Below, one piece after another: positions 46,512 to 64,000 of a stretch of DNA of 64,000 nucleotides. The DNA comes from a plasmid, in sequence record NZ_CP069608.1. The stretch is one strand, 5' to 3'. Every line of letters starts with the position of its first letter. Position 1 is the stretch's first letter. The position numbers were made by a program, and so were the translations under genes. Below the pieces are notes generated by a model, which saw only the letters and a list, made by a program, of their open reading frames with translations, had not been told where the DNA came from and did no database searches.

Positions 46512-46844
46512 ATGGATGAATTAGAAAAAATCACTGACAATGATAGTTGTTGTTCTATAAATAATGAACGTAGAAGTCATCACTCTCCAGAAGTGAAGAA
46601 AAACCTAACTAGTAGATTGAATCGCATAGAAGGACAAATTCGAGGGATTAAAGGATTAATTGAGAAAGATACTTATTGTGACGATATAATTACTCAAATT
46701 GCAGCCGTACAATCTGCTTTAAACGGTGTAAGTAAGATATTACTTGAAGGACACCTTAAACATTGTATAGTTGAGCGTGTTCAAGAAGGAGATAAAGAAG
46801 TAGTAGATGAATTATTGACAACAATTAAACGACTAATGAAATAA
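46512..46844 (+). CDS. csoR: Copper-sensing transcriptional repressor CsoR
   Basis: RLNRIEGQIRGI and YCDDIITQIAAVQSAL match CsoR, including the Cys-His-Cys Cu(I) ligands. Confidence 0.85.
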   Translation: MDELEKITDNDSCCSINNERRSHHSPEVKKNLTSRLNRIEGQIRGIKGLIEKDTYCDDIITQIAAVQSALNGVSKILLEGHLKHCIVERVQEGDKEVVDELLTTIKRLMK

Positions 46845-46852
46845 AAAAGGAG

Positions 46853-47068
46853 ATGTTAAGAATGGAAAAAGTAACGTTAACAGTTAAAGGAATGTCTTGT
46901 GGTCATTGTGTGAAATCTATTGAAGGAAGTGTTGGTGAACTTAACGGTGTACAACATGTAGAGGTAAATCTAAATGAAGCAAAGGTGTCCGTTGAATTTG
47001 ATCAAAACAAAGTATCGTTAGAATCAATTAAAGAAGATATTGATGACCAAGGTTATGAAGTAGCCTAA
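46853..47068 (+). CDS. copZ: Copper chaperone CopZ (HMA domain)
   Basis: GMSCGHC MxCxxC motif. 71 aa. Confidence 0.9.
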   Translation: MLRMEKVTLTVKGMSCGHCVKSIEGSVGELNGVQHVEVNLNEAKVSVEFDQNKVSLESIKEDIDDQGYEVA

Positions 47069-47149
47069 ATAAAATAGCGTGCGAATACTTCCGCACGCTT
47101 CCTTTAGGAATTGAATATACCTAATAGGGGTATAATAGGAGGTTATAAA

Positions 47150-49567: not shown

Positions 49568-49580
49568 AGGAGTGTAAGGA

Positions 49581-49745
49581 AATGAAAAAATGGATTGTTT
49601 CAGCTGTTTTATATCTCCTTATTGTTATAGCTGCTTATGCTATTTGGGCGAGTTTCAATGAGAGTCCAAAGAATGAACACCAAAATCATCAATCGATCTC
49701 TTATCCTACGCCGATTGAAAAAAGTTATAACATTAGGGTGCGATA
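49581..49745 (+). CDS. Small membrane protein (54 aa) immediately downstream of copA
   Basis: AAGGAG RBS. One TM. Below the ORF-track size cut-off. Confidence 0.3.
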
Positions 49746-49748
49746 GAG

Positions 49749-50078
49749 ATGGATATGCAGGGAGTACAAAAACATGTGTTAATCTGTAATGGAAAAAGCT
49801 GCGTCAAGAATGGTGGAGAACAAGTCGCAGAAGCGATTCGTGATGAGATAAAGAAAAGTGGTTGTACTAAATTTATTCATACAACTAAGACGTTATGTAA
49901 CGGTCAGTGTAAAAATGGAGCTATTACAATTCTGTATCCTGATGGTATCTGGTATAAAGAAATGGACGAAGACTCTGGAAGGAAGCTTATTAAAGAGATA
50001 AACACTCCCATTCCTTTAGAGCAAAAGATCCTATTGGACTATAAAAACCACCAATTTACTGAAAAGAAAACAGAATAG
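49749..50078 (+). CDS. Thioredoxin-like [2Fe-2S] ferredoxin-family protein
   Basis: C-x4-C…C-x3-C spacing (CNGKSC…CNGQC) typical of thioredoxin-like 2Fe-2S ferredoxins. Confidence 0.5.
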   Translation: MDMQGVQKHVLICNGKSCVKNGGEQVAEAIRDEIKKSGCTKFIHTTKTLCNGQCKNGAITILYPDGIWYKEMDEDSGRKLIKEINTPIPLEQKILLDYKNHQFTEKKTE

Positions 50079-50291
50079 CAAAAAGAGTTTAGCTTTTCTT
50101 TAGCTAAACTCTTTTTCTATACAGCTAAGGTAACAAATTTTCACGAAAAAAGGAAGTCTAACAGAATAATCTAATTATCTTCAAACTTTCTCTACAGTTT
50201 CATGGTTTAAATATTAAGATTATCGTTCTTTTATTATGTTTCTAAAATTATTAGGTCATTCTATAAGGTGAAATTATTTAATTCTCACTAA

Positions 50292-50313
50292 AACTGCACA
50301 AAAACTGCACAAA
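50292..50313. repeat. Tandem direct repeat AACTGCACAAA ×2 upstream of the DUF1541 gene
   Basis: Seen directly. Possible regulator half-sites. Confidence 0.4.
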
Positions 50314-50406
50314 ATTTATTTATGCTAAAGAAATAAAGTAATAGGAAAGTTTCTCATTTATACCATTGTTTTATTAAAGAGCGAATTCTATTGCTCAGAA
50401 AGAGGG

Positions 50407-50979
50407 ATGAAAATGAAAAAACAACTTTTTATTCTTGGAGTAGCAACAATTATAGGGCTGAGTGGTTGTGGAAATAATTCCAGCAATGATGATCAATCAA
50501 GTAATAAAAAGGAGTCAAATCAATCAGAGATGGATCACTCCAAGATGAATCATTCCGGTTCAAGCGAGGTTCCTGAAGGTTTACAAGAAGCGAAGAACCC
50601 AACATATAAGTTGGGAAGCGAAGCAACTATTAAAGCAGATCACATGAAAGGTATGAACGGTGCTAAAGCGACAATTGTTGGGGCTTATGATACTACAGTT
50701 TATACAGTTTCTTATACACCAACTACTGGTGGAGAAAAAGTAGCAAATCATAAATGGGTCATTCAAGAAGAAATTAAGGACGCTGATGATAAAACGTTAA
50801 AGCCAGGAACTGAAGTTACTCTAGAAGCAGATCACATGGAAGGTATGAAAGGCGCAAAAGCAACAATTGACTCAGCTGAAAAAACTACTGTATATATGGT
50901 TGATTACACACCAACTACTGGTGGAGAAAAGGTAACAAATCATAAATGGGTTACAGAAAATGAACTTTCTGCTAAATAA
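50407..50979 (+). CDS. YdhK/DUF1541-family lipoprotein with two tandem domains
   Basis: Lipobox LSGCG. Two repeats of ADHM(K/E)GM(N/K)GAKATI…TTVY(T/M)V(S/D)YTPTTGGEKV(A/T)NHKWV. His/Met-rich N-terminal linker. Confidence 0.65.
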   Translation: MKMKKQLFILGVATIIGLSGCGNNSSNDDQSSNKKESNQSEMDHSKMNHSGSSEVPEGLQEAKNPTYKLGSEATIKADHMKGMNGAKATIVGAYDTTVYTVSYTPTTGGEKVANHKWVIQEEIKDADDKTLKPGTEVTLEADHMEGMKGAKATIDSAEKTTVYMVDYTPTTGGEKVTNHKWVTENELSAK

Positions 50980-51145
50980 AGCAAGCCTAGAGATTATTCA
51001 ATAATGCAATTAAAATATATTACGTAGGTAATACCTCTGAAACATATAGATTTCAGAGGTATTCTTTTCACCCTATATATTTTTAATTTAAAAATAAAAG
51101 GAGGAATAGCCATTTGCCATTTCTCCCTTTATAGGTAGCAATTTT

Positions 51146-51475
51146 TTAAGATGCTAATTTCCTACATTCTTCTGCGCATTTCAAACAAGCATCTGCGCAC
51201 TTTTGACAGTGTTCATGGTCATGTTTTTTACACACGTTTCCACATGCTTCACAAATTTGAGCGCATGCCTGAGCTAATTCAGAGACAAAGGGTGTTCCTC
51301 TCCCTAAAGCTTGTTCCAAATACGCACAAATATCTGCGCACTCACGGTCAAGGCGAATACATTCAACCATCATATTTACATTTTCTTCTTTTAAACATGC
51401 ATCATAACAATGATTACATGCAGTCATACATTCATGTAACGTTTGAATAACAAATTGATAGTTTTCATGTGACAA
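51146..51475 (-). CDS. Csp3-like Cys-rich four-helix-bundle copper-storage protein (DUF326)
   Basis: 109 aa with 18 Cys in CxxxC/CxxC arrays on predicted helices, like B. subtilis YhjQ/Csp3. TTG start after AGGAGG. Confidence 0.65.
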   Translation of the reverse strand: MSHENYQFVIQTLHECMTACNHCYDACLKEENVNMMVECIRLDRECADICAYLEQALGRGTPFVSELAQACAQICEACGNVCKKHDHEHCQKCADACLKCAEECRKLAS

Positions 51476-51599
51476 GTTAAAATTCCTCCTCTAAATTTGC
51501 GTTCTCTCTATTACAATAGACTAACATTCGGTTTATTAAACATAATAAGATATATTGTTATATCTTTTACATATTCATAAAATCTCATAGGGAGGTTAT

Positions 51600-51938
51600 T
51601 TAGCTGACACTTGCCATAACACGGCATTCTCTGGCACAGTCTAAACACATTTGAGCACACATCTGTGATTGTTGATCAGAAAACCTTGAACATTCATAGG
51701 CACATGCCTTACAAGTATAAGCACAGAATTTGCAAGCGTTTCTCATAGACTTGCTGTTGCGCGATACTAATTGCGTACATAATATACAAATATCACAACA
51801 ATCTCTAAGTAATTGGATTTGTTGAACTCTGGCATGTACATCAGGACTATGCAGAGAGAAATTTATTGTTTGTTCACACATTATCACGCAGTCTTGAAGT
51901 ATTTTCATCATATTTTGAAACATATTTACATCCATCAT
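51600..51938 (-). CDS. Second Csp3-like Cys-rich four-helix-bundle protein (paralog)
   Basis: Start refined to MMDVN after GGGGGA. About 112 aa with 17 Cys in similar arrays. Confidence 0.6.
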   Translation of the reverse strand: MMDVNMFQNMMKILQDCVIMCEQTINFSLHSPDVHARVQQIQLLRDCCDICILCTQLVSRNSKSMRNACKFCAYTCKACAYECSRFSDQQSQMCAQMCLDCARECRVMASVS

Positions 51939-52201
51939 GCTTTTTCCCCCTATTTGGTTCATTTAACACGATATTTTATGTAGATACTCTTCTCCATAGA
52001 ATCCTATCAAAACGTTAGAGGGTCTAAAATTTGTTCTTCACCAAACCACGGAGGTAAAAACTCTAACAAAACAACCAATATACAAGCAATTTTCTGGTCA
52101 ACTTAATCCCTTCTCTTCGAAATGTTGTTTCACATCTAAGTTTGTTTCTTTTATACTTTAAAACATAGAGATATGTAAATTGAAGGCGGTGAAAGTAACA
52201 T

Positions 52202-52606
52202 ATGAGTGAAAACCATAATGAATTACTATCAAATATCTTAGGACCTCTTGAATTAGAAGTAATGAAAGTTCTTTGGTCTAAGAAAGAAGCAACTGTTCAG
52301 GAAGTATTAGCAGATTTAAATAAACAAAATGAGTATGCTTACACCACAATCATGACGATTATGAATCGTTTAGATAAAAAGAGAATTCTTACACGTAATA
52401 AGGTAGGAAAGGGATATCAATATAAAGCTCGTTATAATCAGGATGAGCTTGTTCAACATACTTCATCTAAGAAGGTCGAACAACTTCTTGGAAACTATGG
52501 TGATGTTGCTATTGCACAGTTTGTCGATGCTGTTGGCCATAATCCAGATCAGCTAAATAAATTGAAACAACTTATTCAAAATTTAGAGAATGGGGAAGAA
52601 TCGTGA
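52202..52606 (+). CDS. BlaI/MecI/CopY-family winged-helix transcriptional repressor
   Basis: The N-terminal ELEVMKVLW…TVQEV…YAYTTIMTIMNRLDKKRIL matches the Penicillinase_R domain. It has no C-terminal CxC motif, so it is not CopY-type. Overlaps the next gene (ATGA). Confidence 0.8.
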   Translation: MSENHNELLSNILGPLELEVMKVLWSKKEATVQEVLADLNKQNEYAYTTIMTIMNRLDKKRILTRNKVGKGYQYKARYNQDELVQHTSSKKVEQLLGNYGDVAIAQFVDAVGHNPDQLNKLKQLIQNLENGEES

Positions 52607-53460
52607 TGCAATTATCTCGTCAGTATAGCATTTACATTGCATTTCTAGTTAGTATTACAGGTTCCTTTTCTCTCTGTTTTTTCGCCTATCACCATAAAGG
52701 GGAAAGTTTTTGGGATGGTATGCTTATGTGTTGTAATAGTCATTCGTGGGAACAAGTATTCAAGGTATTGGTTATCTTACTAGCGGTCTTATGTATATTA
52801 TTTATCGTTTATTTTGTGGGAATTGTTCAAAAGACAAAACAATTTCTTTCTACCCTAATCCCTTATAAAGTGAGAGGATTTTTTTCTCAAGAGATAGAAA
52901 CATTTCAAAAAAAATATTCAATACAAATTCATATTATCAATGATAAACGACCTATAGCTTTTACCTATGGGTTTGTTTTTCCTCAAATTATTATAAGTAC
53001 AGGGCTCCTTCAATTGTTAGATTCAGATGAGATAGAAGCTGTTTTAGAACATGAATATTGTCACTATAAAAATAAGGATCCTTTTAAATTGTCATTATAT
53101 AAATGTTTAGCACGCCTATTCTTTTTCTTGCCCATAACTGAAAAAATATTGAAACGCTATGTCACTCAAAAAGAATTAGCTGCAGATGCTTTTGCAATTG
53201 AACAAGTTGGGCTAAAACCAGTTGCTTCAGCTCTATATAAATTAATGACATATTCTTCACCTCTATCTTTCTCAATAGCTCATTTTCAAAATAATGATCT
53301 CAAAGATGTTCGTATTGAATTTCTTTTGACAGGTACACATACCAGGGCTTCTCTGAGCAAAAAAGAATGGACAGTCTCGGTTCTACATCTTATTTTTATT
53401 ACGCTGATAGCAGGATGTGTGTCATATTTGTGGCAAAATATATCTTCTATGATTTTATAA
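52603..53460 (+). CDS. BlaR1/MecR1-like M56 zinc metalloprotease with no sensor domain
   Basis: Four TMs. HExxH (LEHEYCHY). 285 aa, versus about 585 aa for BlaR1, so there is no extracellular PBP-like domain. Confidence 0.75.
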   Translation: MMQLSRQYSIYIAFLVSITGSFSLCFFAYHHKGESFWDGMLMCCNSHSWEQVFKVLVILLAVLCILFIVYFVGIVQKTKQFLSTLIPYKVRGFFSQEIETFQKKYSIQIHIINDKRPIAFTYGFVFPQIIISTGLLQLLDSDEIEAVLEHEYCHYKNKDPFKLSLYKCLARLFFFLPITEKILKRYVTQKELAADAFAIEQVGLKPVASALYKLMTYSSPLSFSIAHFQNNDLKDVRIEFLLTGTHTRASLSKKEWTVSVLHLIFITLIAGCVSYLWQNISSMIL

Positions 53461-53527
53461 TTACTACATAATTGTAGTAATGCATTGACTCCACTTTCAC
53501 CATCTACTACAATTGTGTAGTAGATGG
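53461..53527 (+). promoter_or_regulatory. Promoter with two BlaI-type operators (TACTACA-N4-TGTAGTA)
   Basis: Operator 1 is TTACTACATAATTGTAGTAA (53461-53480). -35 TTGACT (53485-53490), a 17-nt spacer and -10 TACAAT (53508-53513). Operator 2 is CCATCTACTACAATTGTGTAGTAGATGG (53500-53527) and overlaps the -10. The TACA/TGTA dyads match the BlaI/MecI recognition core. Confidence 0.7.
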
Positions 53528-53577
53528 TGTGTTCTATAGACTCCATCTCTATTCCATGTAAGAAGGAGAGGAAAAAC

Positions 53578-53817
53578 ATGAAAATAAAAAAAACAGTTGC
53601 GGGTTTATCCTTTGTTGCCCTAATGGCAGTTGGAGGAACAGTTTTTGCAGCTAGTCCAGCAGATCATAAACCTATGAGTGAAAAAGATTGTATGGAAATG
53701 AGTAAGAAAGACTGTATGAAGATGATGAAAAATATGAGTGAAGAGGATTGTATGGAAATGATGAAAGGCATGAGTAAAAAAGATTGTATGAAAATGATGA
53801 AAGAGATGAAAAAATAA
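53578..53817 (+). CDS. Secreted 79-aa Met/Cys-rich tandem-repeat peptide
   Basis: GAAGGAG RBS. Signal peptide (…VFAASPA). Four repeats: EKDCMEMSK, KDCMKMMK, EEDCMEMMK and KKDCMKMMK. A terminator follows. Confidence 0.6.
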   Translation: MKIKKTVAGLSFVALMAVGGTVFAASPADHKPMSEKDCMEMSKKDCMKMMKNMSEEDCMEMMKGMSKKDCMKMMKEMKK

Positions 53818-53879
53818 AGCTTTAGTGTAAGAAACCTATTATATCTAATATTAAAGTTATCATACTACTAATCTAAGAC

Positions 53880-53915
53880 AAGAGAGCCAACTTTTAATGT
53901 TGGCTTTTTTATTTC
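53880..53915 (+). terminator. Rho-independent terminator after the repeat-peptide gene
   Basis: AGCCAAC TTTTAAT GTTGGCT followed by TTTTTTATTT. Confidence 0.6.
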
Positions 53916-54170
53916 ATGTTAAATAACTTCCAATGGCGAAATTTCAACCATATTGAGAGGCTTTTTAATACTGTCTTGGTGTCATTTAATGATACTTTAT
54001 CGAACATGGTTAGCATATGGATCATATACTTCTGTAAGCAATAAAATACTTACTGATAAAATTATTGTTCCTACTAATAACAACCCATTACTTACAATTT
54101 TGTTGTTCTTTTTACCTAAAAAGAGGCCAAAAGGTTTTATAAACTAATAAGAATACCAGGAATCAAAAAG

Positions 54171-54207
54171 AAAGGAGCCTGATTATAATGAATTCAGGCT
54201 CCTTTAA
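54171..54207. terminator. Terminator at the 3' end of the ars operon
   Basis: GGAGCCTGA…TCAGGCTCC hairpin flanked by A- and T-runs. Confidence 0.55.
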
Positions 54208-54492
54208 TTAACAACAGCTATTATCCATTCCTACTAATACAAAGCCTGACCCCTGAGGACTTTCTTGTACATCAAGCGTAAGACCTTCAGTTGAAGTTAA
54301 TACTGTGTTTTCAATCGCTACTTGAATACCGTTGATTTCTTGTACTGTATCATTTTCAGCTGGTACATCTAACGATAAACCTATTTGAGGACCACAACAT
54401 CCAGCACCTTCAGAATAGAAACGGATACCTTTTGCACCTTGTTTTGCGAATACGTCATCTAACATTTTTTTTGCTTCATTTGTGATATTCAT
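54208..54492 (-). CDS. HesB/IscA-fold small protein with two vicinal Cys pairs (ars operon accessory)
   Basis: IscA-like layout (GIRFYSEGAGCCGPQ…) but with GCCG and a C-terminal SCC in place of the canonical Cys ligands. Last gene of the ars transcription unit. Confidence 0.55.
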   Translation of the reverse strand: MNITNEAKKMLDDVFAKQGAKGIRFYSEGAGCCGPQIGLSLDVPAENDTVQEINGIQVAIENTVLTSTEGLTLDVQESPQGSGFVLVGMDNSCC

Positions 54493-54526
54493 GAAATCTC
54501 TCCCTCTCTTTACCTTTGTTTACGGT

Positions 54527-54955
54527 TTAAGCTTCTGGAAATAGACGTTGAAGTGAAGCTTTCATTTCTGGTTTTACGTTAATTTTAGCACGAGCTGCTT
54601 TGGCTTTCTCTTCTGCCTCTGCAATTGTATCTACTTCGCCTAGTGCTAGTAGTGTTCCAATTGCAACCGTACCTGTACGATTACTTCCTCCTGCACAATG
54701 GAAGTAAATCTTTTTTCCCTCTTCATACGATTTTACGACTTCATTAATTGCATTTTGAATAGACTCATCTTGGTTTTCTGCATCATCCACAATTGGTGTA
54801 TGAACGCGTACTTCTGGAGCATCGTGTTCTAATGCTTCTGCACGTAAGTCATAAATGACATCTGCTTTATCATTTTCCATCATTTCTTTTACATCGGATG
54901 CTCCACCGATGAAAATACGATCGTCAATTAATGCTTGATAATTCTTGTTGCTCAT
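54527..54955 (-). CDS. Dual-specificity/Tyr phosphatase-fold protein with CX5R P-loop (ars operon accessory)
   Basis: HCAGGSNRTG active-site loop. 142 aa. Confidence 0.65.
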   Translation of the reverse strand: MSNKNYQALIDDRIFIGGASDVKEMMENDKADVIYDLRAEALEHDAPEVRVHTPIVDDAENQDESIQNAINEVVKSYEEGKKIYFHCAGGSNRTGTVAIGTLLALGEVDTIAEAEEKAKAARAKINVKPEMKASLQRLFPEA

Positions 54956-55019
54956 TTTTTACACCTCTATAATTTATAATGTTTAGATTATCATTGAAAC
55001 GTACTATCTTCTATGTTTA

Positions 55020-56795
55020 CTATTGTTGACTATATTCTTTTACCTTCTCATAACCAATTTTCTCTTCTGGTTGCCATGGAATAATCGCACAATTAGAAGT
55101 TAGTTCTTCACTTACTTTTTTAATCCATGCTGCTTCAGCTTGAGCTCTTCCTTTTAAGACAGGATCTACTGTGTCAGTCGCATATAAACTCTGATTAACC
55201 ACCCACCATTTCGGGGTAATTTCAGCTCTTTTCAAGTCTACTTGAAGACGACTTGCTTCTAATACAGGTGTAGCCTCAGCAAGTGTAACAATAACCACAC
55301 TGGTTTCTTTTGGGTTACGTAAGCGTGGTAATAGTTTTTTGACGCTTTCAGGAACTTCACCGGTTGAACGTTCTAATTCCTTATGATAAGACTGTGTAGC
55401 ATCAAGTAAGAGCAACGTATGACCTGTTGGTGCTGTATCAATGACCACAATTTCATCATCTGATTTAGCTACAACATCGGCAAATGCACGAAATACAGCA
55501 ATTTCTTCCGTACATGGAGAATTCAAATCTTCTTGAATGTACGCAATTCCATCTTCATCAAGTTCCTCACTTGCCTTTGACAATACTTCGTTTTTATAAG
55601 CTTCTACTTCAGCCTTAGGATCAATTCGACTAATACTCAATAGCTCCTGGGCTTCACTGTTACTAAAGACAAAATCTAAATGTGCCGCAGGATCTGTCGT
55701 CGTTAAATGAACACGATGACCTTTTTCAACTAGTCCTACTGCAATCGCAGATGCTACCGTTGTTTTCCCAACGCCACCTTTACCCATCGTAAAAATGACT
55801 TTGGTTCCATTTGAAGAGAAATCTTCTACCACATTTTTAAATACAGAAAGATTTTGTTGAGACAAGTCTACATCTTTTATTTCTGTTGCTGGTAACGTAT
55901 ACGATTTAAATAAATGGCGAAGAGGAGAAATTCCTGTTAAAGGATAAGATACGTAAGGTACTGAATACATAACCATTTGTTTTAGTTCTTTAGGCATTCT
56001 CTTTAAGGCCTCTTGTTGTCGATTATAGAAAGCCGTTGAAATTTTATCCTCTTTTACATGTTGCTTCATTAAGCCATTTACAAGTAAGTTTTGATTTGAA
56101 ATACCAATCTCTTTTAATTCCTTTGAAGCTCGATTCGCTTCTTCTAGGGAAGAAACATCAGGACGTGCTACTAACATTAGAGTTGTTTGCTCTGGGTTTG
56201 ATAAAGCCTCTACCGTTTTAGCGTACAAACCTTTCTTTTCGTCTAGTCCTGATAAAGGCCCTAAACAAGAAGCTCCGTGTGTGCTTTCCTCCAAAAAACC
56301 TGTCCAGGCAGTTGGCAACTGTAATAAACGTAGGGTATGCCCTGTTGGGGCTGTATCAAACAGAATGTAATCAAATTGATTAACCATCTCTTCATTTGCT
56401 AATAAGTTCGTGAATTCATCAAATGCAGCAATCTCTACTGTACAAGCTCCAGACAATTGTTCCTCCATAGTAGAAACAACAGAATCAGGAAGCTTTCCAC
56501 GATAAGGTCCTACTACTTTGTCACGGTATGTTTTTGCTGCTTCTTCAGGATCTAAGTTACAAGCGTATAGATTCCTTACATTTGGTATTTCAATTGGTTC
56601 GTTTGTCAGTTCCACTTCGAATACGTCTTGTAAATTTGAAGCAGGATCTGTACTGACAATAAGTACTTTGTTGCCTTTATCTGCTAGTGATACAGCTACT
56701 GCACATGCTGTCGATGTTTTTCCAACACCACCTTTACCTGTGAAGAATAAGAAAGGTGTCTGAACAATTTTTTCGGGTTGAAAAGGTTGAAACAT
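55020..56795 (-). CDS. arsA: Arsenite-stimulated ATPase ArsA (two-domain)
   Basis: Two GKGGVGKT P-loops and two DTAPTGHTL signature sequences. 591 aa. Confidence 0.9.
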   Translation of the reverse strand: MFQPFQPEKIVQTPFLFFTGKGGVGKTSTACAVAVSLADKGNKVLIVSTDPASNLQDVFEVELTNEPIEIPNVRNLYACNLDPEEAAKTYRDKVVGPYRGKLPDSVVSTMEEQLSGACTVEIAAFDEFTNLLANEEMVNQFDYILFDTAPTGHTLRLLQLPTAWTGFLEESTHGASCLGPLSGLDEKKGLYAKTVEALSNPEQTTLMLVARPDVSSLEEANRASKELKEIGISNQNLLVNGLMKQHVKEDKISTAFYNRQQEALKRMPKELKQMVMYSVPYVSYPLTGISPLRHLFKSYTLPATEIKDVDLSQQNLSVFKNVVEDFSSNGTKVIFTMGKGGVGKTTVASAIAVGLVEKGHRVHLTTTDPAAHLDFVFSNSEAQELLSISRIDPKAEVEAYKNEVLSKASEELDEDGIAYIQEDLNSPCTEEIAVFRAFADVVAKSDDEIVVIDTAPTGHTLLLLDATQSYHKELERSTGEVPESVKKLLPRLRNPKETSVVIVTLAEATPVLEASRLQVDLKRAEITPKWWVVNQSLYATDTVDPVLKGRAQAEAAWIKKVSEELTSNCAIIPWQPEEKIGYEKVKEYSQQ

Positions 56796-56808
56796 CTCTT
56801 TTGCCTCC

Positions 56809-57177
56809 CTATTTCAGATTGTTTATATTTAATTTAATTGGCGTGCGTGGCTTTTCGCCAATTAACTCCTCTGCTTTAACATCGAACCATTTAGCCAACT
56901 CTTCATTAGTAGGATAGCTCCCTACTTTTTCAACTACTCCATTCACTAGTACCACTGGTAATGCATCAGGGCCTTTGCTCATAAGAATTTTGTTTACTTC
57001 TGCTTGATCAACAAACTTATCCGGCTCGCTGGTTAAGTTATAACGTGTAATATCAAAGCCTTTCTTTTTCAAAGCAAATACAGCAGAAGCTACTCTCGTT
57101 AGCTCTGGATCTACACTTGGACCACAAACACCTGTTGAACAACACATAGCAGGATCAAAAATCTCTACTTTCTTCAT
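56809..57177 (-). CDS. arsD: Arsenic metallochaperone/repressor ArsD
   Basis: FDPAMCCSTGVCG N-terminal motif. Start refined to MKKVEIF after a GGGGA RBS. Confidence 0.85.
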   Translation of the reverse strand: MKKVEIFDPAMCCSTGVCGPSVDPELTRVASAVFALKKKGFDITRYNLTSEPDKFVDQAEVNKILMSKGPDALPVVLVNGVVEKVGSYPTNEELAKWFDVKAEELIGEKPRTPIKLNINNLK

Positions 57178-57294
57178 ATTGTCATCCCCTTTTAGTAAAA
57201 TACAATACCTTAACAACAACTTATAATAATATACTTATATAAAGGGTAAAGAGTAAGCCGAGAGTTATTTTCCCGGCTTATTTGATTTTTATTA

Positions 57295-57717
57295 TTACTT
57301 ACCTGTTTCAGCGAAACGGTTAATGCGCTCACCGATTTCATCACGTACACGTTGGAAGAATGCCCACTTTTCTTCATCTGTTCCTTCTGCTTTTGCTGGG
57401 TCATCAAAGCCCCAGTGTTCACGTTTCACATGAGGTGGTGTCATTGGACATTTATCAGCTGCATCTCCACATAATGTAACAACTAAATCTGCATTATTTA
57501 AGATTTCAGGATCGATAATATCTGATGTTTGATTCGAAATATCAATACCAGCTTCTTTCATTGCTTTTACAGCATTCGGGTTTAAACCATGTGCTTCAAT
57601 CCCTGCACTATATACATTCCACTCATCACTATTTAAATGTTTTTTTGCCCAACCTTCTGCCATTTGACTACGGCAAGAGTTACCTGTACATAAGAAATAA
57701 AGTGTTTTTTTAGACAT
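57295..57717 (-). CDS. arsC: Thioredoxin-coupled arsenate reductase ArsC (LMW-PTP fold)
   Basis: [15 protein letters not shown]-loop with C10, C82 and C89 equivalents. Confidence 0.9.
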
Positions 57718-57741
57718 GTGTAAAATCTCCTTTATGATGTG

Positions 57742-59040
57742 TTATGAAATAATTAGTAACCAAATATATAAACCAACAAGCGTAATAAACAATGTTGGGA
57801 TGGTTAAGATAATACCTGTTTTAAAGTACGTTCCCCATGAAATTTTCACACCTTTGGTTGACAGAACATGAAGCCATAAAAGCGTCGCAAGAGAACCGAT
57901 TGGTGTAATCTTTGGACCTAAATCTGATCCAATAACATTTGCGTAAATAAGTGCTTCTTTAATCGTTCCTGTTGCATGTGTCGCATCAATCGCAAGGGCA
58001 TCAATCATAACAGTTGGCATATTATTCATAATTGATGAAAGAATAGCTGCGATGAATCCCATACCGATAGTGGCTGCAAATAATCCATGATCGGCTGTTG
58101 CTCGAATAACATCGGCTAGTACTTCTGTTAGACCAACATTACGTAGGCCATAAACGACTACATACATACCAATAGAGAAGAAAACGATAGCCCAAGGCGC
58201 GCCTTTTAATACTGTTTTCGTTTCCACTGCTGGACTTTGTCTTGCTAATCCTAAGAAGAAAATAGCAATAATTCCTGCAATAATGGAAACTGGAATATCA
58301 AAGAATTCACCTACAAAATAGCCAAGGACTAAAACAATTAGTACAATTCCTGACAACTTGAACATTTTTTCATCTTTAATTGCCTCAACTGGTTTTGGTA
58401 GATCAGCTACATTGTACTTTTTTGGAATACTTTTTCGGAAATATAGATACAAGACGACTATACTTGCGAAAAGTGCGAATAAATCTGGAACAATCATGCG
58501 TGAAGCAAATTCAGAAAATCGAATACCAAAGAAGTCAGCTGATACGATATTTACTAAGTTACTTACCACAAGTGGTAACGACGTTGTATCCGCAATAAAT
58601 CCACTTGCAATAATAAATGGAAAGACCATTTTATCTTCAAATTTTAACGCTCGTACCATTGCAAGTACGATAGGTGTTAAAATTAAGGCTGCCCCATCAT
58701 TGGCAAATAAGGCTGCCACAACGGCTCCAAGTAGCGAAACATATACAAACATACGAACACCATTGCCACCTGCAGCTCTTGCCATATGCAACGCTGCCCA
58801 TTCAAAGAAACCAATTTCGTCTAAAATTAAGGAAATAATAATAACTGCGATAAATGTGAGGGTCGCATTCCATACAATGCCTGTTACATCCAGAACATCG
58901 TGGAAATCAACGACTCCTGCTAATAAAGCAAGAACTGCTCCTCCACAGGCTGACCAACCGATAGATAAGTTTTTCGGCTGCCAAATAACAAAAACTAATG
59001 TCACTAAAAAGATCAGTGATGCTAGGACAACTGATGTCAA
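57742..59040 (-). CDS. arsB: Arsenite efflux permease ArsB
   Basis: Twelve TMs. Long colinear similarity to E. coli ArsB (VIWQPK…GWSA…GAVLAL…[12 protein letters not shown]…). Confidence 0.9.
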
Positions 59041-59055
59041 TTTTTAAACCTCCAA

Positions 59056-59406
59056 TTACTCACAACAACTAATACGTAGTCCTTGTTTTTCTAACTCTTT
59101 TAAGCGTTCATCTTGACTTGGTACTGATTCAAGTATGCTAAGAACAAACTCATAATACTTACTTTCTTTGTTAAGGGAATAAAAGATCCATTGTCCTTTT
59201 CGTCTTTCCTTAACTAGTTCCACATCTTTTAATTTTCTTAAATGCTGACTAATTGCCGGCTGGCTAGCTTGATAAATGTCAACAAACTCACAGACACAAC
59301 ATTCATTGTTCTCAATTAACTTCATCATAGAAAGCCTAGTCTTATCGCCTAGTAGCTTTAAAATCTGAGCTGCTTTTTCAACTTCAACTATAGTTTTTAC
59401 ACTCAT
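59056..59406 (-). CDS. arsR: ArsR/SmtB-family As(III)-responsive repressor
   Basis: CCVCEF metal-binding motif preceding the HTH (QPAISQHLRKL). Confidence 0.85.
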   Translation of the reverse strand: MSVKTIVEVEKAAQILKLLGDKTRLSMMKLIENNECCVCEFVDIYQASQPAISQHLRKLKDVELVKERRKGQWIFYSLNKESKYYEFVLSILESVPSQDERLKELEKQGLRISCCE

Positions 59407-59622
59407 TCATCGACACCTCCTGATACGTTAAATACATATATAATAATTTGCTTATGTGTTTATGTTATTAATATAATCGTTTTCTTATATATTTTCAACC
59501 GTTTTGTTTAAATAAATTTGAAAAAACAAATCTATTTTATAACTACATCATAAGATGCCTATATTTTGTTTTTATTATGTAAGTAGCACCTTATAAAAAA
59601 GCCTGGATATATGAATGTATAA

Positions 59623-59661
59623 AAAACAGGAATCGGAAAGAATCCCTCCGATTCCTTTATT
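59623..59661 (-). terminator. Terminator after acr3, separating it from arsR
   Basis: AGGAATCGGA…TCCGATTCCT with a T-run on the minus strand. Confidence 0.6.
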
Positions 59662-59667
59662 TATTAT

Positions 59668-60723
59668 CTATCTTTCTTGAGGTTGAAAATATCTCTTTTT
59701 TAACCAAAACGCTGCATTTACAAGGGCAATGAGTGCCGGAACTTCTACAAGAGGTCCAATTACAGCTGCAAATGCGGCTCCTGAATTAATCCCAAATACC
59801 CCAACTGCTACAGCAATGGCCAACTCAAAGTTATTGCCTGACGCAGTAAACGAAAGAGAAGTTGTAACAGAATAACTTGCTCCTGCCCTTTTTCCTAAAT
59901 AAAAAGAAACAAAAAACATCAAGACAAAGTAAATCAAAAGTGGAATAGCAATACGTACAACATCAAGAGGTAATTGAATAATCATATCTCCTTTTAACGA
60001 AAACATAACAATAATCGTAAATAGGAGTGCAATAAGAGTCAAAGGACTAATTTTAGGTACGAGTACACGTTCATACCATTCTTTCCCTTTGATGCCGATA
60101 AAGATAAATCGAGTCAATATACCAGCTAAAAAAGGGATTCCCAAGTAAATGAGAACACTCTTTGCAATCTCACCCATCGTAATATCAATCACAAAGCTTT
60201 CAAGTCCCAACCATTTTGGAATAAGCGTAACGAACAAATACGCATAAACAGAGTAGAAAAAGACTTGAAAAATGGAATTAAGAGCGACTAAACCAGCAGC
60301 ATATTCGCGATCCCCTTTCGCAAGGTCATTCCATACAATAACCATGGCGATACAACGTGCTAGTCCAATTAAAATCAAACCAATCATGTACTCTGGTACA
60401 TCTCTAAGAAAGACAATCGCAAGTAGAAACATGAGAATAGGGCCAATAATCCAGTTTTGCAAAAGTGAAATTCCTAATACTTTTTTGTCTTTAAACACAT
60501 GTCCCATATTTTCGTATCGTACTTTTGCTAATGGTGGGTACATCATCAAAATTAATCCGATTGCTAAAGGAATGGATGTTGTACCTACCTGAAAGTGATT
60601 CAGTCCATCTACGAAGCTGGGAAAAACATAACCTAAACCAATTCCTATAAACATAGCTACAAAAATCCATACAGTTAAATACCGATCTAAAAATGACAGT
60701 TGTTTACTCAATTGTTGATTCAT
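59668..60723 (-). CDS. acr3: ACR3-family arsenite efflux transporter (start uncertain: 60723 or 60780)
   Basis: [14 protein letters not shown]-terminal motif and ten TMs characteristic of ACR3. Distinct from ArsB. Confidence 0.85.
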
Positions 60724-60974
60724 TCCTTGCTCCAACTCCTTTTCAATTTTAGATCCACAGCCTCTACAACCTCCTTTCATTGTTGTACAATCATATAGTT
60801 ATTCACTTATATATTGAGAAATGTATCTATTTATGAATTTTTAAAAATAAACTATACAATTAGATAGCTGCTATATGATCCTTACTAAAAAATCCAACGT
60901 GAAAAAGCCACTTCCTTTCTGTAAAGAAGTAGCTTTCATTCGTTATATAAATAAGACTTTTTTGGACTTTACAC

Positions 60975-62216
60975 TCACATGGATCTGCTGAAAATTTGTT
61001 TTTTTTCTAGGTGAATCTTTGTCCATCCAATAGCTAATACACCAAAAATGACTGATCCTCCCCAATATAGATAAGCGAAGCCATTCTGAATTTCAATCAG
61101 CATGTAACTAATAAAGGGACCGAGTGCGGCTCCTATATCTTGAGCGATAGAATAGACCGTAAGAAAGGATATAATATTCGATGTTTTTGCTATATCAGAT
61201 GCTAAAGCATCCGTAAGAGTTGTAATAGATGTAGCTCCTATCATGACGATCAGCATAATAACAACCCAAATGATTAGTGGTATATCACTAGCAATCATCC
61301 CAAACGCGAAACTACTAACAATAAGCGAAAGGATATAAAGAGGAATTCTTCCAGATGGTCCATCTGACCAATGTCCAAAGAGACTACCGAAGAAGGGTTC
61401 CCAGGCCCAACGAACAGCCTGTAATAGCCCTGAAAAGAACGTAACACTAATAATCAATCCGAATAATGTGATTTTCTCCCCATATGAATGCTCAAGAATA
61501 GCACTAACAGTCGATGTTAAAACCCCTTGAATTAACATCGTAATCAGAAATCCACTAATAATAATAATGATTTTATGTTTTAAGATCTTATGTATGGAAA
61601 CATTGGTATTAGCTCTTTGAACAGCCTCAGTCTGTTGATTAGATTTAACTCGAAGAGAATAAAAAACTAAAGGTAGCCCTATAAAAGATAGACACCCAAA
61701 AAGGATAGAAACAAATTGCAATCCTACTATAGGTACTAGAATTCCCCCAAGTAACATACCAAATAGGCTTCCTGTGCGATATAGACCGTTATATAGCCCC
61801 ATTGCTTTTCCACGAGTGGAGTCATTTGAATAATAGACAACTGTCGATAATCCTCCGATTCGAAAGAAAGACCAAGCAATTCCCCATAGCCCTCGTAGAA
61901 TAATCCAAGCAATAAACCCTTTAGCCATCCCATATCCTAACGTTGTCACGCTTCCAAGTACAACTGCAATAATAAGGCCTGTCCGTAAAGATATTTTCTG
62001 GTATAACCATCCTATGAAAGGATTGAAAGGCAAACGAATAAATCGATTAACGGATAAAAGGATACCAACCTGCCAAAGGGAGTCAAGCCCTGCCACTTTC
62101 CAATAAACAGGTAATACAATATAGAGCATGGAGTCACCTAGAAGACTAAGTGCCGTTATAATAGCAACAAGAACAATCACGTTTGACGAAGAAGATTTAG
62201 ATCTTGCAGTAAACAT
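60975..62216 (-). CDS. MFS transporter (12 TM)
   Basis: MFS fold with R/K-rich loop 2-3 motifs. Sits between acr3 and the flavoprotein on the same strand. Could be an ArsK/ArsJ-like organoarsenical exporter, but this is unproven. Confidence 0.7.
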   Translation of the reverse strand: MFTARSKSSSSNVIVLVAIITALSLLGDSMLYIVLPVYWKVAGLDSLWQVGILLSVNRFIRLPFNPFIGWLYQKISLRTGLIIAVVLGSVTTLGYGMAKGFIAWIILRGLWGIAWSFFRIGGLSTVVYYSNDSTRGKAMGLYNGLYRTGSLFGMLLGGILVPIVGLQFVSILFGCLSFIGLPLVFYSLRVKSNQQTEAVQRANTNVSIHKILKHKIIIIISGFLITMLIQGVLTSTVSAILEHSYGEKITLFGLIISVTFFSGLLQAVRWAWEPFFGSLFGHWSDGPSGRIPLYILSLIVSSFAFGMIASDIPLIIWVVIMLIVMIGATSITTLTDALASDIAKTSNIISFLTVYSIAQDIGAALGPFISYMLIEIQNGFAYLYWGGSVIFGVLAIGWTKIHLEKKQIFSRSM

Positions 62217-62244
62217 ACAATTACCACCTTCTTTAAGAAAAAGC

Positions 62245-62451
62245 TTATTTTTTTTGATGTTTTAGTTCATCGTAAGCTAGAAGAAAATTTTGATATGTTA
62301 TATGTCCCATGCTATCACATTGTGATCCAAATAATCGCTGAAAAGTTAGTTCCCTTGCCTGTTCAGCTGTATATTCATATGCGTTCATAAACAGTTTCAT
62401 GTAGGATACAAAATACTCCTTACTCAACCTTCCTGAATGATTAATTGTCAT
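62245..62451 (-). CDS. Small hypothetical protein (68 aa)
   Basis: ORF only. No family recognised. Confidence 0.3.
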   Translation of the reverse strand: MTINHSGRLSKEYFVSYMKLFMNAYEYTAEQARELTFQRLFGSQCDSMGHITYQNFLLAYDELKHQKK

Positions 62452-62516
62452 TCTTATGTCCTCCTTTATATAAAAAGGGAGTAAGCAAAATGATTACTCC
62501 CTTTCTAAAACACTAT

Positions 62517-63911
62517 TTAACAACCACAGTTCGAACTGTTACTATCCGTACTGCATGAGCTTTCTTGCTGTAAATTCACGCTACAAACCCCAGTCTCGGG
62601 TAGATCTAGCTCTACTCTCTTAGCTGCTTCGTAATCCCCAGCAAGATGAGCAGCAATTGATCGCACTTGTTCATAGCCAGTTGCCATTAAAAATGTTGGT
62701 GCACGCCCATAACTTTTAGCTCCTACAATATAAAAATCCTTTTCAGGTTGTCGAAGTTCTTCTTCTCCATGTGCGCGAACAGTACCACAACTATGCAGAT
62801 TTGGATCAATTAGAGGAGATAATTTTTCTACACTCTCTGTAATCGAATCAATGGCTGTACGTAATTCACTGATAATCGTAAAGTCTGGGCGATTGCCGGC
62901 ATTTACAATCATTTCATCAATACCTGTCAGAAGTTCTTCTTCTCCTTTATGCTTTCCTATAATATCTATATGGTTATTGAATTCCTTCACATATTGAATC
63001 TTATAAGGTGTTACTACCTTTACTTTTCCTGTATCTACAAGGTCGTGAATCCGACTTCCAAGAGCTCCCCTTTCTGCAAGAGCATCTTTTTCTTCCCCAC
63101 CATATGCTTCTTCTACTTTTTGTTTTCTCATAATCCAAATGATATCTGTTTGTGGATGAGTTTCCTGCAATTGAGCTAATTCTAATAAAGTATTAATAGC
63201 TGAATGACCACTTCCTACAACTGCTACACGTTTATCTGCATATCGAGATCTATCCGTTTCTAACACATTTGGAATGCCGTAAAAGATGTGGTCTTGAAGG
63301 GACCGTTCTCCTTTTAGCCAGACACCACCTGAATTAGCAGGATTCGGGTTACCCCAGGTACCAGAAGCATCTAAGATCGCTCTAGCTTCGTATGTTTGAA
63401 GTTCACCATCTTTTACTGCATAAATTAAGAAAGGTTTATTTTCACGACCAGCCGTTTTCATCTTATCTGTTTCTTCTCGCGTAATGGAAAGAACCTTCGT
63501 GTTAACATGCACGTGTGGCTTTATTTCTGGAATGTTTGCTAATGGCTCTAAATAGCCTTCTACAAGCTCTTTTCCTGTAGGTAATGTTTCTAATTCAGGA
63601 GATCTCCAGCCATTTTGTTCTAAAAGAGCGTGTGCTGCTTTATCAATGTTGTAACGCCAAGATGAGAATAAGCGAACATGCTCCCATGTTAAAATATTGG
63701 CCCCTACCTGTGAACCTGCTTCTAACAAAATGAATGATTGACCTTGTTTAGTTAGGTGTGCTGCTGCTGCAAGTCCAATCGGTCCTCCCCCAATAATGGC
63801 TACAGGTAAATGTTTATGCTTTGTTTCTTCCACCTGCGTAGTAATTGGTTCAAATTTAATCTCTGGTGAGCAACAAGATGTTGTATTTAACGGAATTTTA
63901 ATAGGTTTCAT
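62517..63911 (-). CDS. FAD/NAD(P)-binding flavoprotein (ArsO/CzcO-like flavin monooxygenase family) with Cys-rich N- and C-termini
   Basis: Two Rossmann motifs (GGGPIG, GSGHSA). N-terminal TSCCSPE. C-terminal SSCSTDSNSSNCGC. Start refined to MKPIKIP after GAGGAG. Confidence 0.65.
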   Translation of the reverse strand: MKPIKIPLNTTSCCSPEIKFEPITTQVEETKHKHLPVAIIGGGPIGLAAAAHLTKQGQSFILLEAGSQVGANILTWEHVRLFSSWRYNIDKAAHALLEQNGWRSPELETLPTGKELVEGYLEPLANIPEIKPHVHVNTKVLSITREETDKMKTAGRENKPFLIYAVKDGELQTYEARAILDASGTWGNPNPANSGGVWLKGERSLQDHIFYGIPNVLETDRSRYADKRVAVVGSGHSAINTLLELAQLQETHPQTDIIWIMRKQKVEEAYGGEEKDALAERGALGSRIHDLVDTGKVKVVTPYKIQYVKEFNNHIDIIGKHKGEEELLTGIDEMIVNAGNRPDFTIISELRTAIDSITESVEKLSPLIDPNLHSCGTVRAHGEEELRQPEKDFYIVGAKSYGRAPTFLMATGYEQVRSIAAHLAGDYEAAKRVELDLPETGVCSVNLQQESSCSTDSNSSNCGC

Positions 63912-64000
63912 AAGAATTCTCCTCATTTCTACATGATAAATTGTTCTTTCCTTAATCTTAAATCAAAAAAAATTGATTTATTAGGTGTGAAAACAGAATT

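Follow-up and report, generated by a model that had tools for sequence, protein, structure and literature searches.

What do the two genes that close an extended arsenic-resistance (ars) operon contribute to it, and how are they expressed together with the rest of the cluster? The question is raised by a 64,000-nucleotide (nt) stretch of plasmid DNA (sequence record NZ_CP069608.1; hereafter the window), where seven successive open reading frames (ORFs) on the minus strand, at 54208-59406, encode, in order of reading, arsR, arsB, arsC, arsD, arsA, a dual-specificity phosphatase (DSP), and a HesB-like protein. This is a genuine arsenic-resistance operon, of a type already known in Bacillus relatives. 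Our best explanation for the whole, to which we give an even chance of being right, is that the genes would be expressed as two coupled units, with the HesB-like protein acting as a carrier of trivalent arsenic (As(III)) and the DSP as a phosphatase linked to arsenate. Three features go beyond the published picture—i.e. an operator-like dyad, a sister lineage of the HesB-like protein with apparent selenocysteine (Sec) or cysteine beside a metal ATPase, and a cross-phylum link between DSP and arsC genes.

The operon and its transcription signals

The initial annotation had described a seven-gene operon with the motif HCAGGSNRTG in the phosphatase and the motifs GCCG and C-terminal SCC in the HesB-like protein. 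The ORFs and the curated family models bear out the genes with their coordinates and lengths, and the motifs are literally present in the translations. The seven genes, with protein lengths in amino acids (aa) and scores against the respective cut-offs, are as follows:

59056-59406, minus strand: arsR, ArsR/SmtB repressor, 116 aa (Pfam HTH_5, 5.6e-15; NCBIfam NF033788, 93 bits, cut-off 55)
57742-59040, minus strand: arsB, arsenite efflux permease, 432 aa (Pfam ArsB, 3e-228; TIGR00935, 743 bits against 415)
57295-57717, minus strand: arsC, thioredoxin-coupled arsenate reductase with the fold of the protein tyrosine phosphatases of low molecular weight (LMW-PTP), 140 aa (TIGR02691, 237 bits against 174; NF010053, 252 against 215)
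56809-57177, minus strand: arsD, As(III) metallochaperone, 122 aa (Pfam ArsD, 1.8e-42; NF033727, 136 bits against 90)
55020-56795, minus strand: arsA, two-domain pump-driving ATPase, 591 aa (TIGR04291, 868 bits against 650)
54527-54955, minus strand: ars-associated DSP, 142 aa (Pfam DSPc and PTP-SAK above cut-off)
54208-54492, minus strand: HesB-like protein with HesB/IscA fold, 94 aa, last gene (G31-C32-C33-G34 and C-terminal C93-C94)

All five core proteins (ArsR, ArsB, ArsC, ArsD, and ArsA) pass curated NCBIfam cut-offs, and the curated models place ArsC in the thioredoxin-type, pI258-family class. The start of arsD was taken as the ATG, the mechanical ORF from a TTG reaching 57219; its product contains Cys12, Cys13, and Cys18 (MCCSTGVCGP) and lacks C-terminal cysteine pairs. 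The ArsR translation has a metalloid-site motif of the CVC type, ECCVCE, and a C-terminal SCCE. In such operons, ArsC reduces arsenate with thioredoxin, Cys12, Cys13, and Cys18 of ArsD capture As(III) and deliver it to ArsA, ArsA energizes ArsB, and ArsR relieves repression upon As(III).

The seven-gene layout is itself already known, ordinary for soil Bacillales, and annotated on sequenced plasmids. For example, a 5.4-kilobase (kb) unit with identical gene order is present on Priestia plasmids (98% of the query length, 85-91% DNA identity), namely three from P. megaterium (CP109762.1, NZ_CP059466.1, and NZ_CP064271.1) and one from Priestia sp. J2 (NZ_CP086209.1), where the genes have been annotated. 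Scanning one genome per species with a HesB-like profile yields 66 loci, and 70 once plasmid loci and the window are added (individual loci carry L numbers below). The HesB-like gene is located in an ars cluster at 66 of the 70 loci, and at 63 it follows arsD-arsA on the same strand, with or without DSP or arsT. A DSP gene directly adjoins it in 43/70, a gene for thioredoxin-reductase-like ArsT is found between arsA and the accessory genes in 14/70, and 23 ars-linked loci carry the HesB-like gene without a DSP. The position is conserved in many genera and families, whether the genes reside on a chromosome, a plasmid, or a mobile element; in Mammaliicoccus sciuri, for instance, a mobile element has the same arsD-arsA-linked arrangement next to merR-merA. 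On HesB-like or DSP genes of ars operons, the literature we searched offers just the papers on Bacillus sp. CDB3 and an Exiguobacterium genome paper, which gives the operon order as arsR-arsD-arsA-hesB-arsB (PMC8779447).

Some database entries from this survey call for caution. Sphingomonas sp. PsM26 is the name given to a 3.6-kb contig (L002) that has arsD-arsA-DSP-HesB, with a DSP and a HesB-like protein 98% identical in amino acids to those of the window, and a 'Stenotrophomonas rhizophila' plasmid region (L069; 34% G+C, with frameshifts) has arsR-acr3-arsC-arsD-arsA-HesB. Both have the appearance of a contaminant, a misassigned record, or a recent transfer out of Bacillales. RefSeq also calls many HesB-like proteins 'adhesin', and JGI calls several DSPs of 140-142 aa 'thioredoxin reductase (NADPH)' or 'rhodanese-related sulfurtransferase'; such names seem to be mistaken annotations that may have spread from a neighbouring arsT.

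The intergenic spacers of the operon, all short but that of arsC-arsD, measure 15 nt (arsR-arsB), 24 (arsB-arsC), 117 (arsC-arsD), 13 (arsD-arsA), 64 (arsA-DSP), and 34 (DSP-hesB). The following signals are located in and around them, with stem and element lengths in base pairs (bp):

59470-59498, minus strand: promoter-like TTGAAA-17-TATATT upstream of arsR (consensus scan, 10/12 matches), enclosing the first dyad copy
59473-59488, minus strand: dyad ATAAGAAAACGATTAT, putative ArsR operator read from the sequence, within the spacer and -10 of the arsR promoter
59440-59455, minus strand: second dyad copy, ATAAGCAAATTATTAT, between the arsR promoter and the arsR ribosome-binding site
57254-57280, minus strand: 10-bp GC-rich hairpin with a weak U-rich tract directly 3' of arsC, candidate internal terminator or attenuator
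57223-57250, minus strand: promoter-like TTTACC-16-TATTAT downstream of the arsC hairpin, enclosing dyad ATAAGTATATTATTAT (16 bp, 57223-57238), putative internal ArsR-controlled promoter/operator
54163-54205, minus strand: intrinsic terminator directly 3' of the HesB-like gene, with a 12-bp stem followed by CUUUUUGAUU, which ends the operon

The terminal terminator has an RNA fold of -19.3 kcal/mol (z = -3.96), with 0/200 shuffles as stable. RNA folding of the arsC-arsD spacer gives -26.3 kcal/mol (z = -2.65), and a hairpin is found at the same post-arsC position in most related loci. The arsA-DSP and DSP-hesB spacers fold into no significant structure. Against Rfam, the interval 53800-59800 gave zero matches with E up to 1, so the arsC-arsD spacer is explained by no known riboswitch or leader.

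The dyads are of the type ATAAG-N6-NTTAT, with two copies upstream of arsR and one in the arsC-arsD spacer. Among 60 related loci, 40 have this dyad upstream of arsR, where shuffles predict 0.34, and 33 have it in the arsC-arsD spacer, where they predict 0.13; it occurs in 0/60 control regions downstream of the HesB gene. We infer that the dyad is the ArsR operator. Because it is common to the arsR promoter and the arsC-arsD spacer, an internal arsenic-responsive promoter is suggested, which would drive arsD-arsA-DSP-hesB under ArsR control in addition to read-through. As such, a first unit, arsR-arsB-arsC, would be transcribed from the arsR promoter and end in the leaky hairpin, and a second, arsD-arsA-DSP-hesB-like, would be reached by read-through and by the putative internal promoter with the same dyad operator. 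If that promoter is real, all seven genes would respond to As(III) through ArsR. Published work describes comparable behaviour. In CDB3, the eight-gene ars1 cluster is a single operon, and the arsC-arsD hairpin acts as an attenuator that experimentally cuts the levels of the long transcript (PMC4562236); in Exiguobacterium, hesB is upregulated with arsR, arsD, and arsA in one transcriptome comparison (PMC8779447).

A HesB-like protein with a putatively remodelled cysteine pocket

The structural model of the HesB-like protein has a predicted local distance difference test (pLDDT) score of 89, and Foldseek matches it to E. coli IscA (1r94 and 1s98, template-modelling (TM) scores of 0.80 and 0.78) and to SufA (2d2a, TM 0.75). 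At the family level, the protein falls under every curated threshold. Specifically, it scores 24.6 bits with the Pfam iron-sulfur (Fe-S) family Fe-S_biosyn (PF01521), just under the cut-off of 26.3, and 38.5 bits with TIGR00049 against 58.8; the IscA, SufA, and ErpA equivalogs are far below their cut-offs. The top-scoring family is NF038090 (IscA_HesB_Se), at 53.1 bits against 85, and TIGR01911 (HesB_rel_seleno) ranks third, at 37.4 bits against 66.35. A lead from B. subtilis YneR to pyruvate dehydrogenase, the latter a classic target of arsenite, was set aside, the Foldseek match to the YneR-PdhA integrative model (9a4q_B, TM 0.50) being too weak.

The cysteines of this protein differ in an informative manner from those of the Fe-S carriers. 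The usual Fe-S ligands had been thought to be replaced, and a simple replacement is ruled out by profile alignment with solved A-type carriers, where C32 aligns to the canonical first cysteine of IscA and ErpA (GGCSG loop). What stands of that proposal is that C33 takes the place of the following serine, and that the C-terminal CGC motif is gone, the tail ending in SCC, such that the carrier pattern C...C-G-C is absent. The alignment to E. coli IscA stops at query residue 86, which corresponds to chain residue 90, and C93 and C94 are located 7-8 residues beyond. In IscA, Cys99 and Cys101 lie 9-11 residues past residue 90, so the tail cysteines occupy an equivalent region; the tail of the model itself has low confidence (pLDDT 57).

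Across 55 homologues, G31, C32, C33, G34, and Q36 never vary and C93 hardly does, while C94 is confined to the Priestia clade. The vicinal pair at the C-terminus, which had also been proposed as a feature of the protein, is therefore present in the window and clade-specific, C93 alone being conserved family-wide. An exhaustive profile search found 1193 relatives (E <= 0.001), 92 of them at E <= 1e-10. Small size, GCCGP, and an end in C or CC are shared by many of these HesB-like relatives; others have a 'GWGGP' or 'GWSGP' loop, and some are N-terminally truncated fragments of 53-60 aa that start just past the loop. Within the neighbourhood, vicinal cysteine pairs recur in four proteins—i.e. 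ArsR, ArsD (MCCSTGVC), the HesB-like protein (GCCG and SCC), and a flavoprotein at 62517-63926 (SCCS).

The search also reveals a sister lineage in a different setting, where the HesB-like gene comes directly after those for a regulator resembling ArsR/CmtR and a P1B ATPase of the Zn/Cd/Pb type that has several HMA domains. Its HesB-like genes include:

L072, 7893-8174: HesB-like gene, metagenomic
L073, 7893-8174: HesB-like gene, metagenomic
L075, 5248-5529: HesB-like gene

In L072 and L073, the codon equivalent to C32 is an in-frame TGA, with the frame kept on both sides (G-*-S-G-P), and the 81%-identical homologue in L075 has Cys-Cys at this position. Gene callers report the TGA forms as two separate pieces, of 31 and 57 aa, and JGI labels one Cys form 'HesB-like selenoprotein'. 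The in-frame TGA likely encodes Sec. Its interchange with Cys-Cys implies that the key loop residue behaves like a reactive chalcogen, and a Sec/Cys pattern of this kind at C32 is typical of such a residue, not of a structural one. The HesB-like family is thus linked to two different efflux ATPases for thiophilic metal(loid)s.

These observations are consistent with a recruitment of the IscA pocket for arsenic. The pocket would be remodelled to the vicinal C32-C33 pair plus C93 at the extreme C-terminus, giving a three-sulfur site like that of ArsD, and the protein would serve the ArsD/ArsA pump as a small cytosolic carrier or buffer of As(III). In the sister lineage, the same carrier role would be played for a Cd/Zn-type P-type ATPase. 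This putative role in carrying As(III), which had been suggested in the initial annotation, gains support from the gene context.

The fold leads to the most serious competing explanation, according to which the protein is an A-type carrier of Fe-S clusters or iron that rebuilds clusters damaged by arsenite or matures a partner protein. We consider this unlikely. The IscA/SufA fold, the retained canonical first cysteine, and the sub-threshold matches to the TIGR00049, ErpA, IscA, and SufA models all agree with it, yet the score is under the cut-off of every curated Fe-S carrier family, and the missing CGC motif leaves a single conserved cysteine in the tail. A vicinal dithiol would itself be a prime target of As(III), and the operon encodes no Fe-S client protein. 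An Fe-S function also sits poorly with the sister lineage, which is linked to an efflux ATPase of the Cd/Zn type and has an apparent Sec at the key position; selenocysteine is not known to serve as an Fe-S ligand in natural proteins.

The reactive chalcogen could also point to redox chemistry. In that case, a disulfide between loop and tail (a selenenylsulfide in Sec forms) would recycle oxidized ArsC or protect thiols, and might be reduced by ArsT. Sec/Cys interchange, as seen at C32 in the sister lineage, is what redox-active cysteines typically show (PMC1794560), many relatives have one loop chalcogen and one terminal cysteine, and ArsT is encoded within the operon in the 14 loci noted above. 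However, the protein lacks both the fold of a thioredoxin and a CxxC motif, most loci, the window included, have no ArsT, and the P1B ATPase beside the sister lineage fits metal binding better than ArsC recycling. We regard a redox role as improbable, and retain As(III) carriage as the preferred function of the HesB-like protein.

The phosphatase-fold protein

The P-loop of the DSP, H86-C87-A-G-G-S-N-R93-T-G, is glycine-rich and of the phosphatase type, and C87 is the sole cysteine of the protein. Three Pfam scores exceed their cut-offs, with 34.1 bits for DSPc (cut-off 33.5), 32.5 for PTP-SAK (27), and 31.7 for Tc-R-P (27). The AlphaFold2 (AF2) model has a pLDDT of 91 and matches DUSP14/22/10/5 and Tk-PTP in Foldseek with TM ~0.8. 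An acidic loop lies ~30 residues before C87, where 45 homologues all keep D58 and nearly all keep D57; we infer from their position, which is that of the general acids of DSPs, that these residues may act in catalysis.

The chemistry of this protein had been likened to that of Acr2/Cdc25-type arsenate reductases, and a second arsenate reductase had been proposed. Acr2/Cdc25 reductases combine CX5R chemistry with a rhodanese fold, and pI258-type ArsC has the LMW-PTP fold. The CX5R loop is indeed common to the window protein and these enzymes; its fold is that of a DSP, not of a rhodanese, which rules out an Acr2/Cdc25-like assignment. The DSP has no match among the curated ArsC families of NCBIfam, and its fold is neither rhodanese nor LMW-PTP. 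A second reductase is disfavoured by the single cysteine, by the glycine-rich phosphatase-type P-loop, and by the CDB3 orthologue, orf8, which is reported to confer arsenate resistance in E. coli without complementing the loss of arsC (Zheng et al. 2013, as cited in PMC4562236).

Homologues of the DSP outside Bacillales suggest what its task might be. In arsenic islands of enterobacterial plasmids, proteins 43-45% identical to it are encoded next to arsC, and the annotation of these islands lists no HesB-like gene. For example, an Enterobacter plasmid (L083) has HTH-ArsC-DSP-ArsC-arsRDABC, and in a Citrobacter arsenatis plasmid (L082), ArsC and DSP genes are found beside a molybdopterin oxidoreductase/DsrO-like cluster and arsDAB, with a second, shorter DSP fragment. 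The molybdopterin oxidoreductase/DsrO-like cluster may be an arsenate respiratory reductase. Taken together, the arsC-adjacent enterobacterial homologues, the arsenate resistance conferred by orf8 without complementation of arsC as cited in PMC4562236, and the P-loop indicate an arsenate-related function of the phosphatase type. We read the DSP most readily as a genuine phosphatase, linked to arsenate in its role, rather than as a reductase. It would be a catalytically competent cysteine phosphatase, its role tied to arsenate rather than arsenite, and would act on a phospho-substrate relevant under arsenate stress.

The adjacency of the two accessory genes allows a further possibility, in which the DSP and the HesB-like protein (with ArsT where present) form a two-component arsenate reductase; the arseno-thioester at Cys87 would be resolved by the vicinal thiols of the HesB-like protein, which would carry off As(III). 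The genes adjoin in 43/70 loci and remain neighbours where their order is swapped, and ArsC and Acr2 rely on CX5R chemistry too. The DSP itself lacks a resolving cysteine, and if it needed a partner, the failure of orf8 on its own to complement arsC would be accounted for. Against this, the 23 ars-linked loci with a HesB-like gene and no DSP, and the arsenic islands where the annotation lists a DSP and no HesB-like gene, indicate that the modules are separable. The P-loop is of the glycine-rich phosphatase type, ArsC is already encoded in every operon, and the arsenate resistance given by orf8 alone, to the extent cited in PMC4562236, argues for an independent function. We find this mechanism quite improbable, and an obligatory pairing of DSP and HesB-like protein is ruled out, each being present in ars clusters without the other found or annotated alongside.

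That the two distal genes are mere passengers without an arsenic role, as a few homologues outside ars clusters might suggest (L017, L025, L047, L055, and L070), is very improbable given their conserved position across many genera, families, and replicon types, the short spacers with no internal terminator and a single terminator after the last gene, and the phenotype published for orf8, in the form cited above.

Several points weigh against the account we favour, namely two coupled units with an As(III) carrier and an arsenate-linked phosphatase. The three cysteines per monomer in the pocket region of the HesB-like protein are also what an A-type Fe-S carrier requires. Four of the 66 genome loci (L017, L025, L047, and L055) are not ars-linked and lie in unrelated contexts, and a DSP homologue from Evansella, 64% identical, is not ars-linked either. 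The sister group is one close lineage, 78-100% identical, which amounts to about one evolutionary observation, and one of its members (L077) adjoins a glyoxalase-fold gene, not a pump. The Sec reading relies on frame conservation and on the Cys-Cys homologue, the hairpins downstream of the TGA being modest when folded as selenocysteine insertion sequences (SECIS). The internal promoter is a consensus match, and its dyad could serve merely as a roadblock or operator. Lastly, the result of Zheng et al. (2013) is drawn from its citation in PMC4562236.

A broader proposal can be offered tentatively, and we think it possible rather than probable. Short HesB-like proteins with GCCG (or its Sec form) and a terminal cysteine, the long-known HesB-like selenoproteins among them, might constitute an unrecognized class of chaperones that bind thiophilic metal(loid)s through thiols or selenols and serve efflux ATPases (ArsA for the ars-linked clade, a Cd/Zn/Pb-type P1B ATPase for the sister clade), with the window protein being an IscA fold recruited from Fe-S to As(III), and the DSP might be a new arsenate-specific accessory enzyme common to Bacillales and Enterobacteriaceae. 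If As(III) carriage by the HesB-like protein proves right, arsenic would have a second chaperone, structurally unrelated to the first, and there would be a functional lead for the HesB-like selenoprotein family, for whose function we found no description in the literature searched. A defined arsenate-linked substrate of the DSP, if there is one, would mean that arsenate detoxification includes a further, new step. The accessory genes travel with arsD-arsA across many genera and onto mobile elements of the staphylococcal family, and the phosphatase has reached clinical Enterobacteriaceae plasmids.

Neighbouring clusters and comparison with known systems

Both flanks of the operon hold further metal-related genes. 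Upstream of arsR, a separate arsenic-related cluster occupies 59668-63926 on the minus strand, and an island for copper or soft metals at 46512-53817 adjoins the operon on the other side. The genes concerned are:

59668-60780, minus strand: ACR3 arsenite transporter, with its own terminator at 59628-59656
60975-62216, minus strand: major facilitator superfamily (MFS) transporter
62517-63926, minus strand: flavin adenine dinucleotide (FAD)/pyridine-nucleotide oxidoreductase, 469 aa, with Cys-rich ends (N-terminal TSCCSPE, C-terminal SSCSTDSNSSNCGC)
46512-46844: CsoR-type repressor, copper/soft-metal island
47111-49567: P1B ATPase with two HMA domains, copper/soft-metal island
52202-53460: BlaI/BlaR1-like pair, copper/soft-metal island
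53524-53817: small secreted protein with four MS-x-x-DCM-x-MMK repeats and no Pfam match

The terminator at 59628-59656 makes acr3 a unit separate from the ars operon. A flavoprotein homologous to the oxidoreductase, with CC motifs at both ends, is encoded directly after a HesB-like gene in L032 (8332-9711). The copper/soft-metal island also encodes a DUF1541 protein and a Cys-rich DUF326 protein. On a Priestia plasmid (L001, 1271-7840), the ars operon is preceded by genes for a radical S-adenosylmethionine (SAM) protein with an RCCLKC tail, an aquaporin, a CobW-like 'cobalamin biosynthesis' GTPase, a hypothetical protein, a phosphate transporter, a glyoxalase-fold protein, a second ArsR, and ArsN1. 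In pBMB171 (L068, 1-2412), arsR comes after a comparable run of genes (MIP channel, GTP-binding protein, hypothetical protein, and GNAT), and the two may represent a conserved organoarsenical module.

Among known proteins, the A-type carriers IscA, SufA, and ErpA share with the HesB-like protein their fold (TM 0.75-0.80) and the first cysteine of the G-C-x-G loop; the window protein is shorter, has a second Cys for the serine and a terminal C/CC for CGC, and misses all family cut-offs. ArsD resembles it in being small, cytosolic, and encoded next to arsA, with a vicinal Cys pair and a third Cys as the proposed three-sulfur As(III) site. By contrast, ArsD is thioredoxin-like and the HesB-like protein IscA-like in fold, and the gene of the latter accompanies arsD rather than replacing it. 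The best-scoring curated families are those of the HesB-like selenoproteins (TIGR01911 and NF038090; Zhang et al. 2006, PMC1794560), and here the window protein uses Cys-Cys. For the DSP, the best solved matches by sequence and fold are Tk-PTP, ShufPTP, and DUSP14/22, small phosphatases of archaeal or atypical DSP kind, which are alike in size, fold, and P-loop; identity in the Foldseek alignments is 15-21%, and the window DSP differs in its conserved bacterial ars-operon context. With the CX5R arsenate reductases (Acr2p/LmACR2 and pI258-type ArsC), it shares a Cys-X5-Arg anion loop able to hold arsenate, whereas its DSP fold, single cysteine, glycine-rich phosphatase-type loop, and conserved acidic loop set it apart.

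At the operon level, the closest published system is ars1 of Bacillus sp. CDB3, arsRYCDAT-orf7-orf8, where orf7 is HesB-like and orf8 encodes a DSP; B. cereus-group strains carry a CDB3-type operon without arsT (PMC4562236, PMC5481582). The initial annotation had pointed to a similar CDB3 layout under the name R-Y-C-D-A-T-I-P. A comparable long ars operon with HesB-like and DSP genes of unsettled function is indeed described for CDB3, under the name used in these papers, arsRYCDAT-orf7-orf8 (PMC4562236, PMC5481582), and the similarity is confined to part of the layout. Both have arsR, a transporter, a thioredoxin-type arsC, a hairpin, arsD, arsA, and an adjacent pair of HesB-like and DSP genes at the 3' end, and the 10-bp stem at 57254-57280 corresponds to the hairpin of CDB3-type operons, its position being conserved across loci. 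However, the window has ArsB where the CDB3 and B. cereus-group operons have Acr3, it places the DSP before HesB where CDB3 and pBMB171 have HesB before the DSP, and it lacks the arsT of CDB3, for which variants with and without the gene exist among relatives.

The seven-gene B. cereus-group version is found, e.g. in pBMB171 and B. cereus ATCC 10987, and reads arsR-acr3-arsC-arsD-arsA-HesB-DSP in pBMB171, with which the protein comparison was made in place of the CDB3 sequence. The window DSP is 43% identical to the orf8-type protein over 138 aa (BLASTP, 4e-40), and the HesB-like protein is 42% identical to the orf7-type protein over 93 aa (1e-26). Both pairs align over their full lengths, and GCCGP, the terminal cysteine, and HCxGGxNRTGT are common to them. 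The arsC-arsD spacer of the window has an extra operator-like dyad, whereas the pBMB171-type spacer holds the terminator hairpin alone. The operons of the Priestia plasmids are closer still, and differ from that of the window just in sequence divergence and flanking genes.

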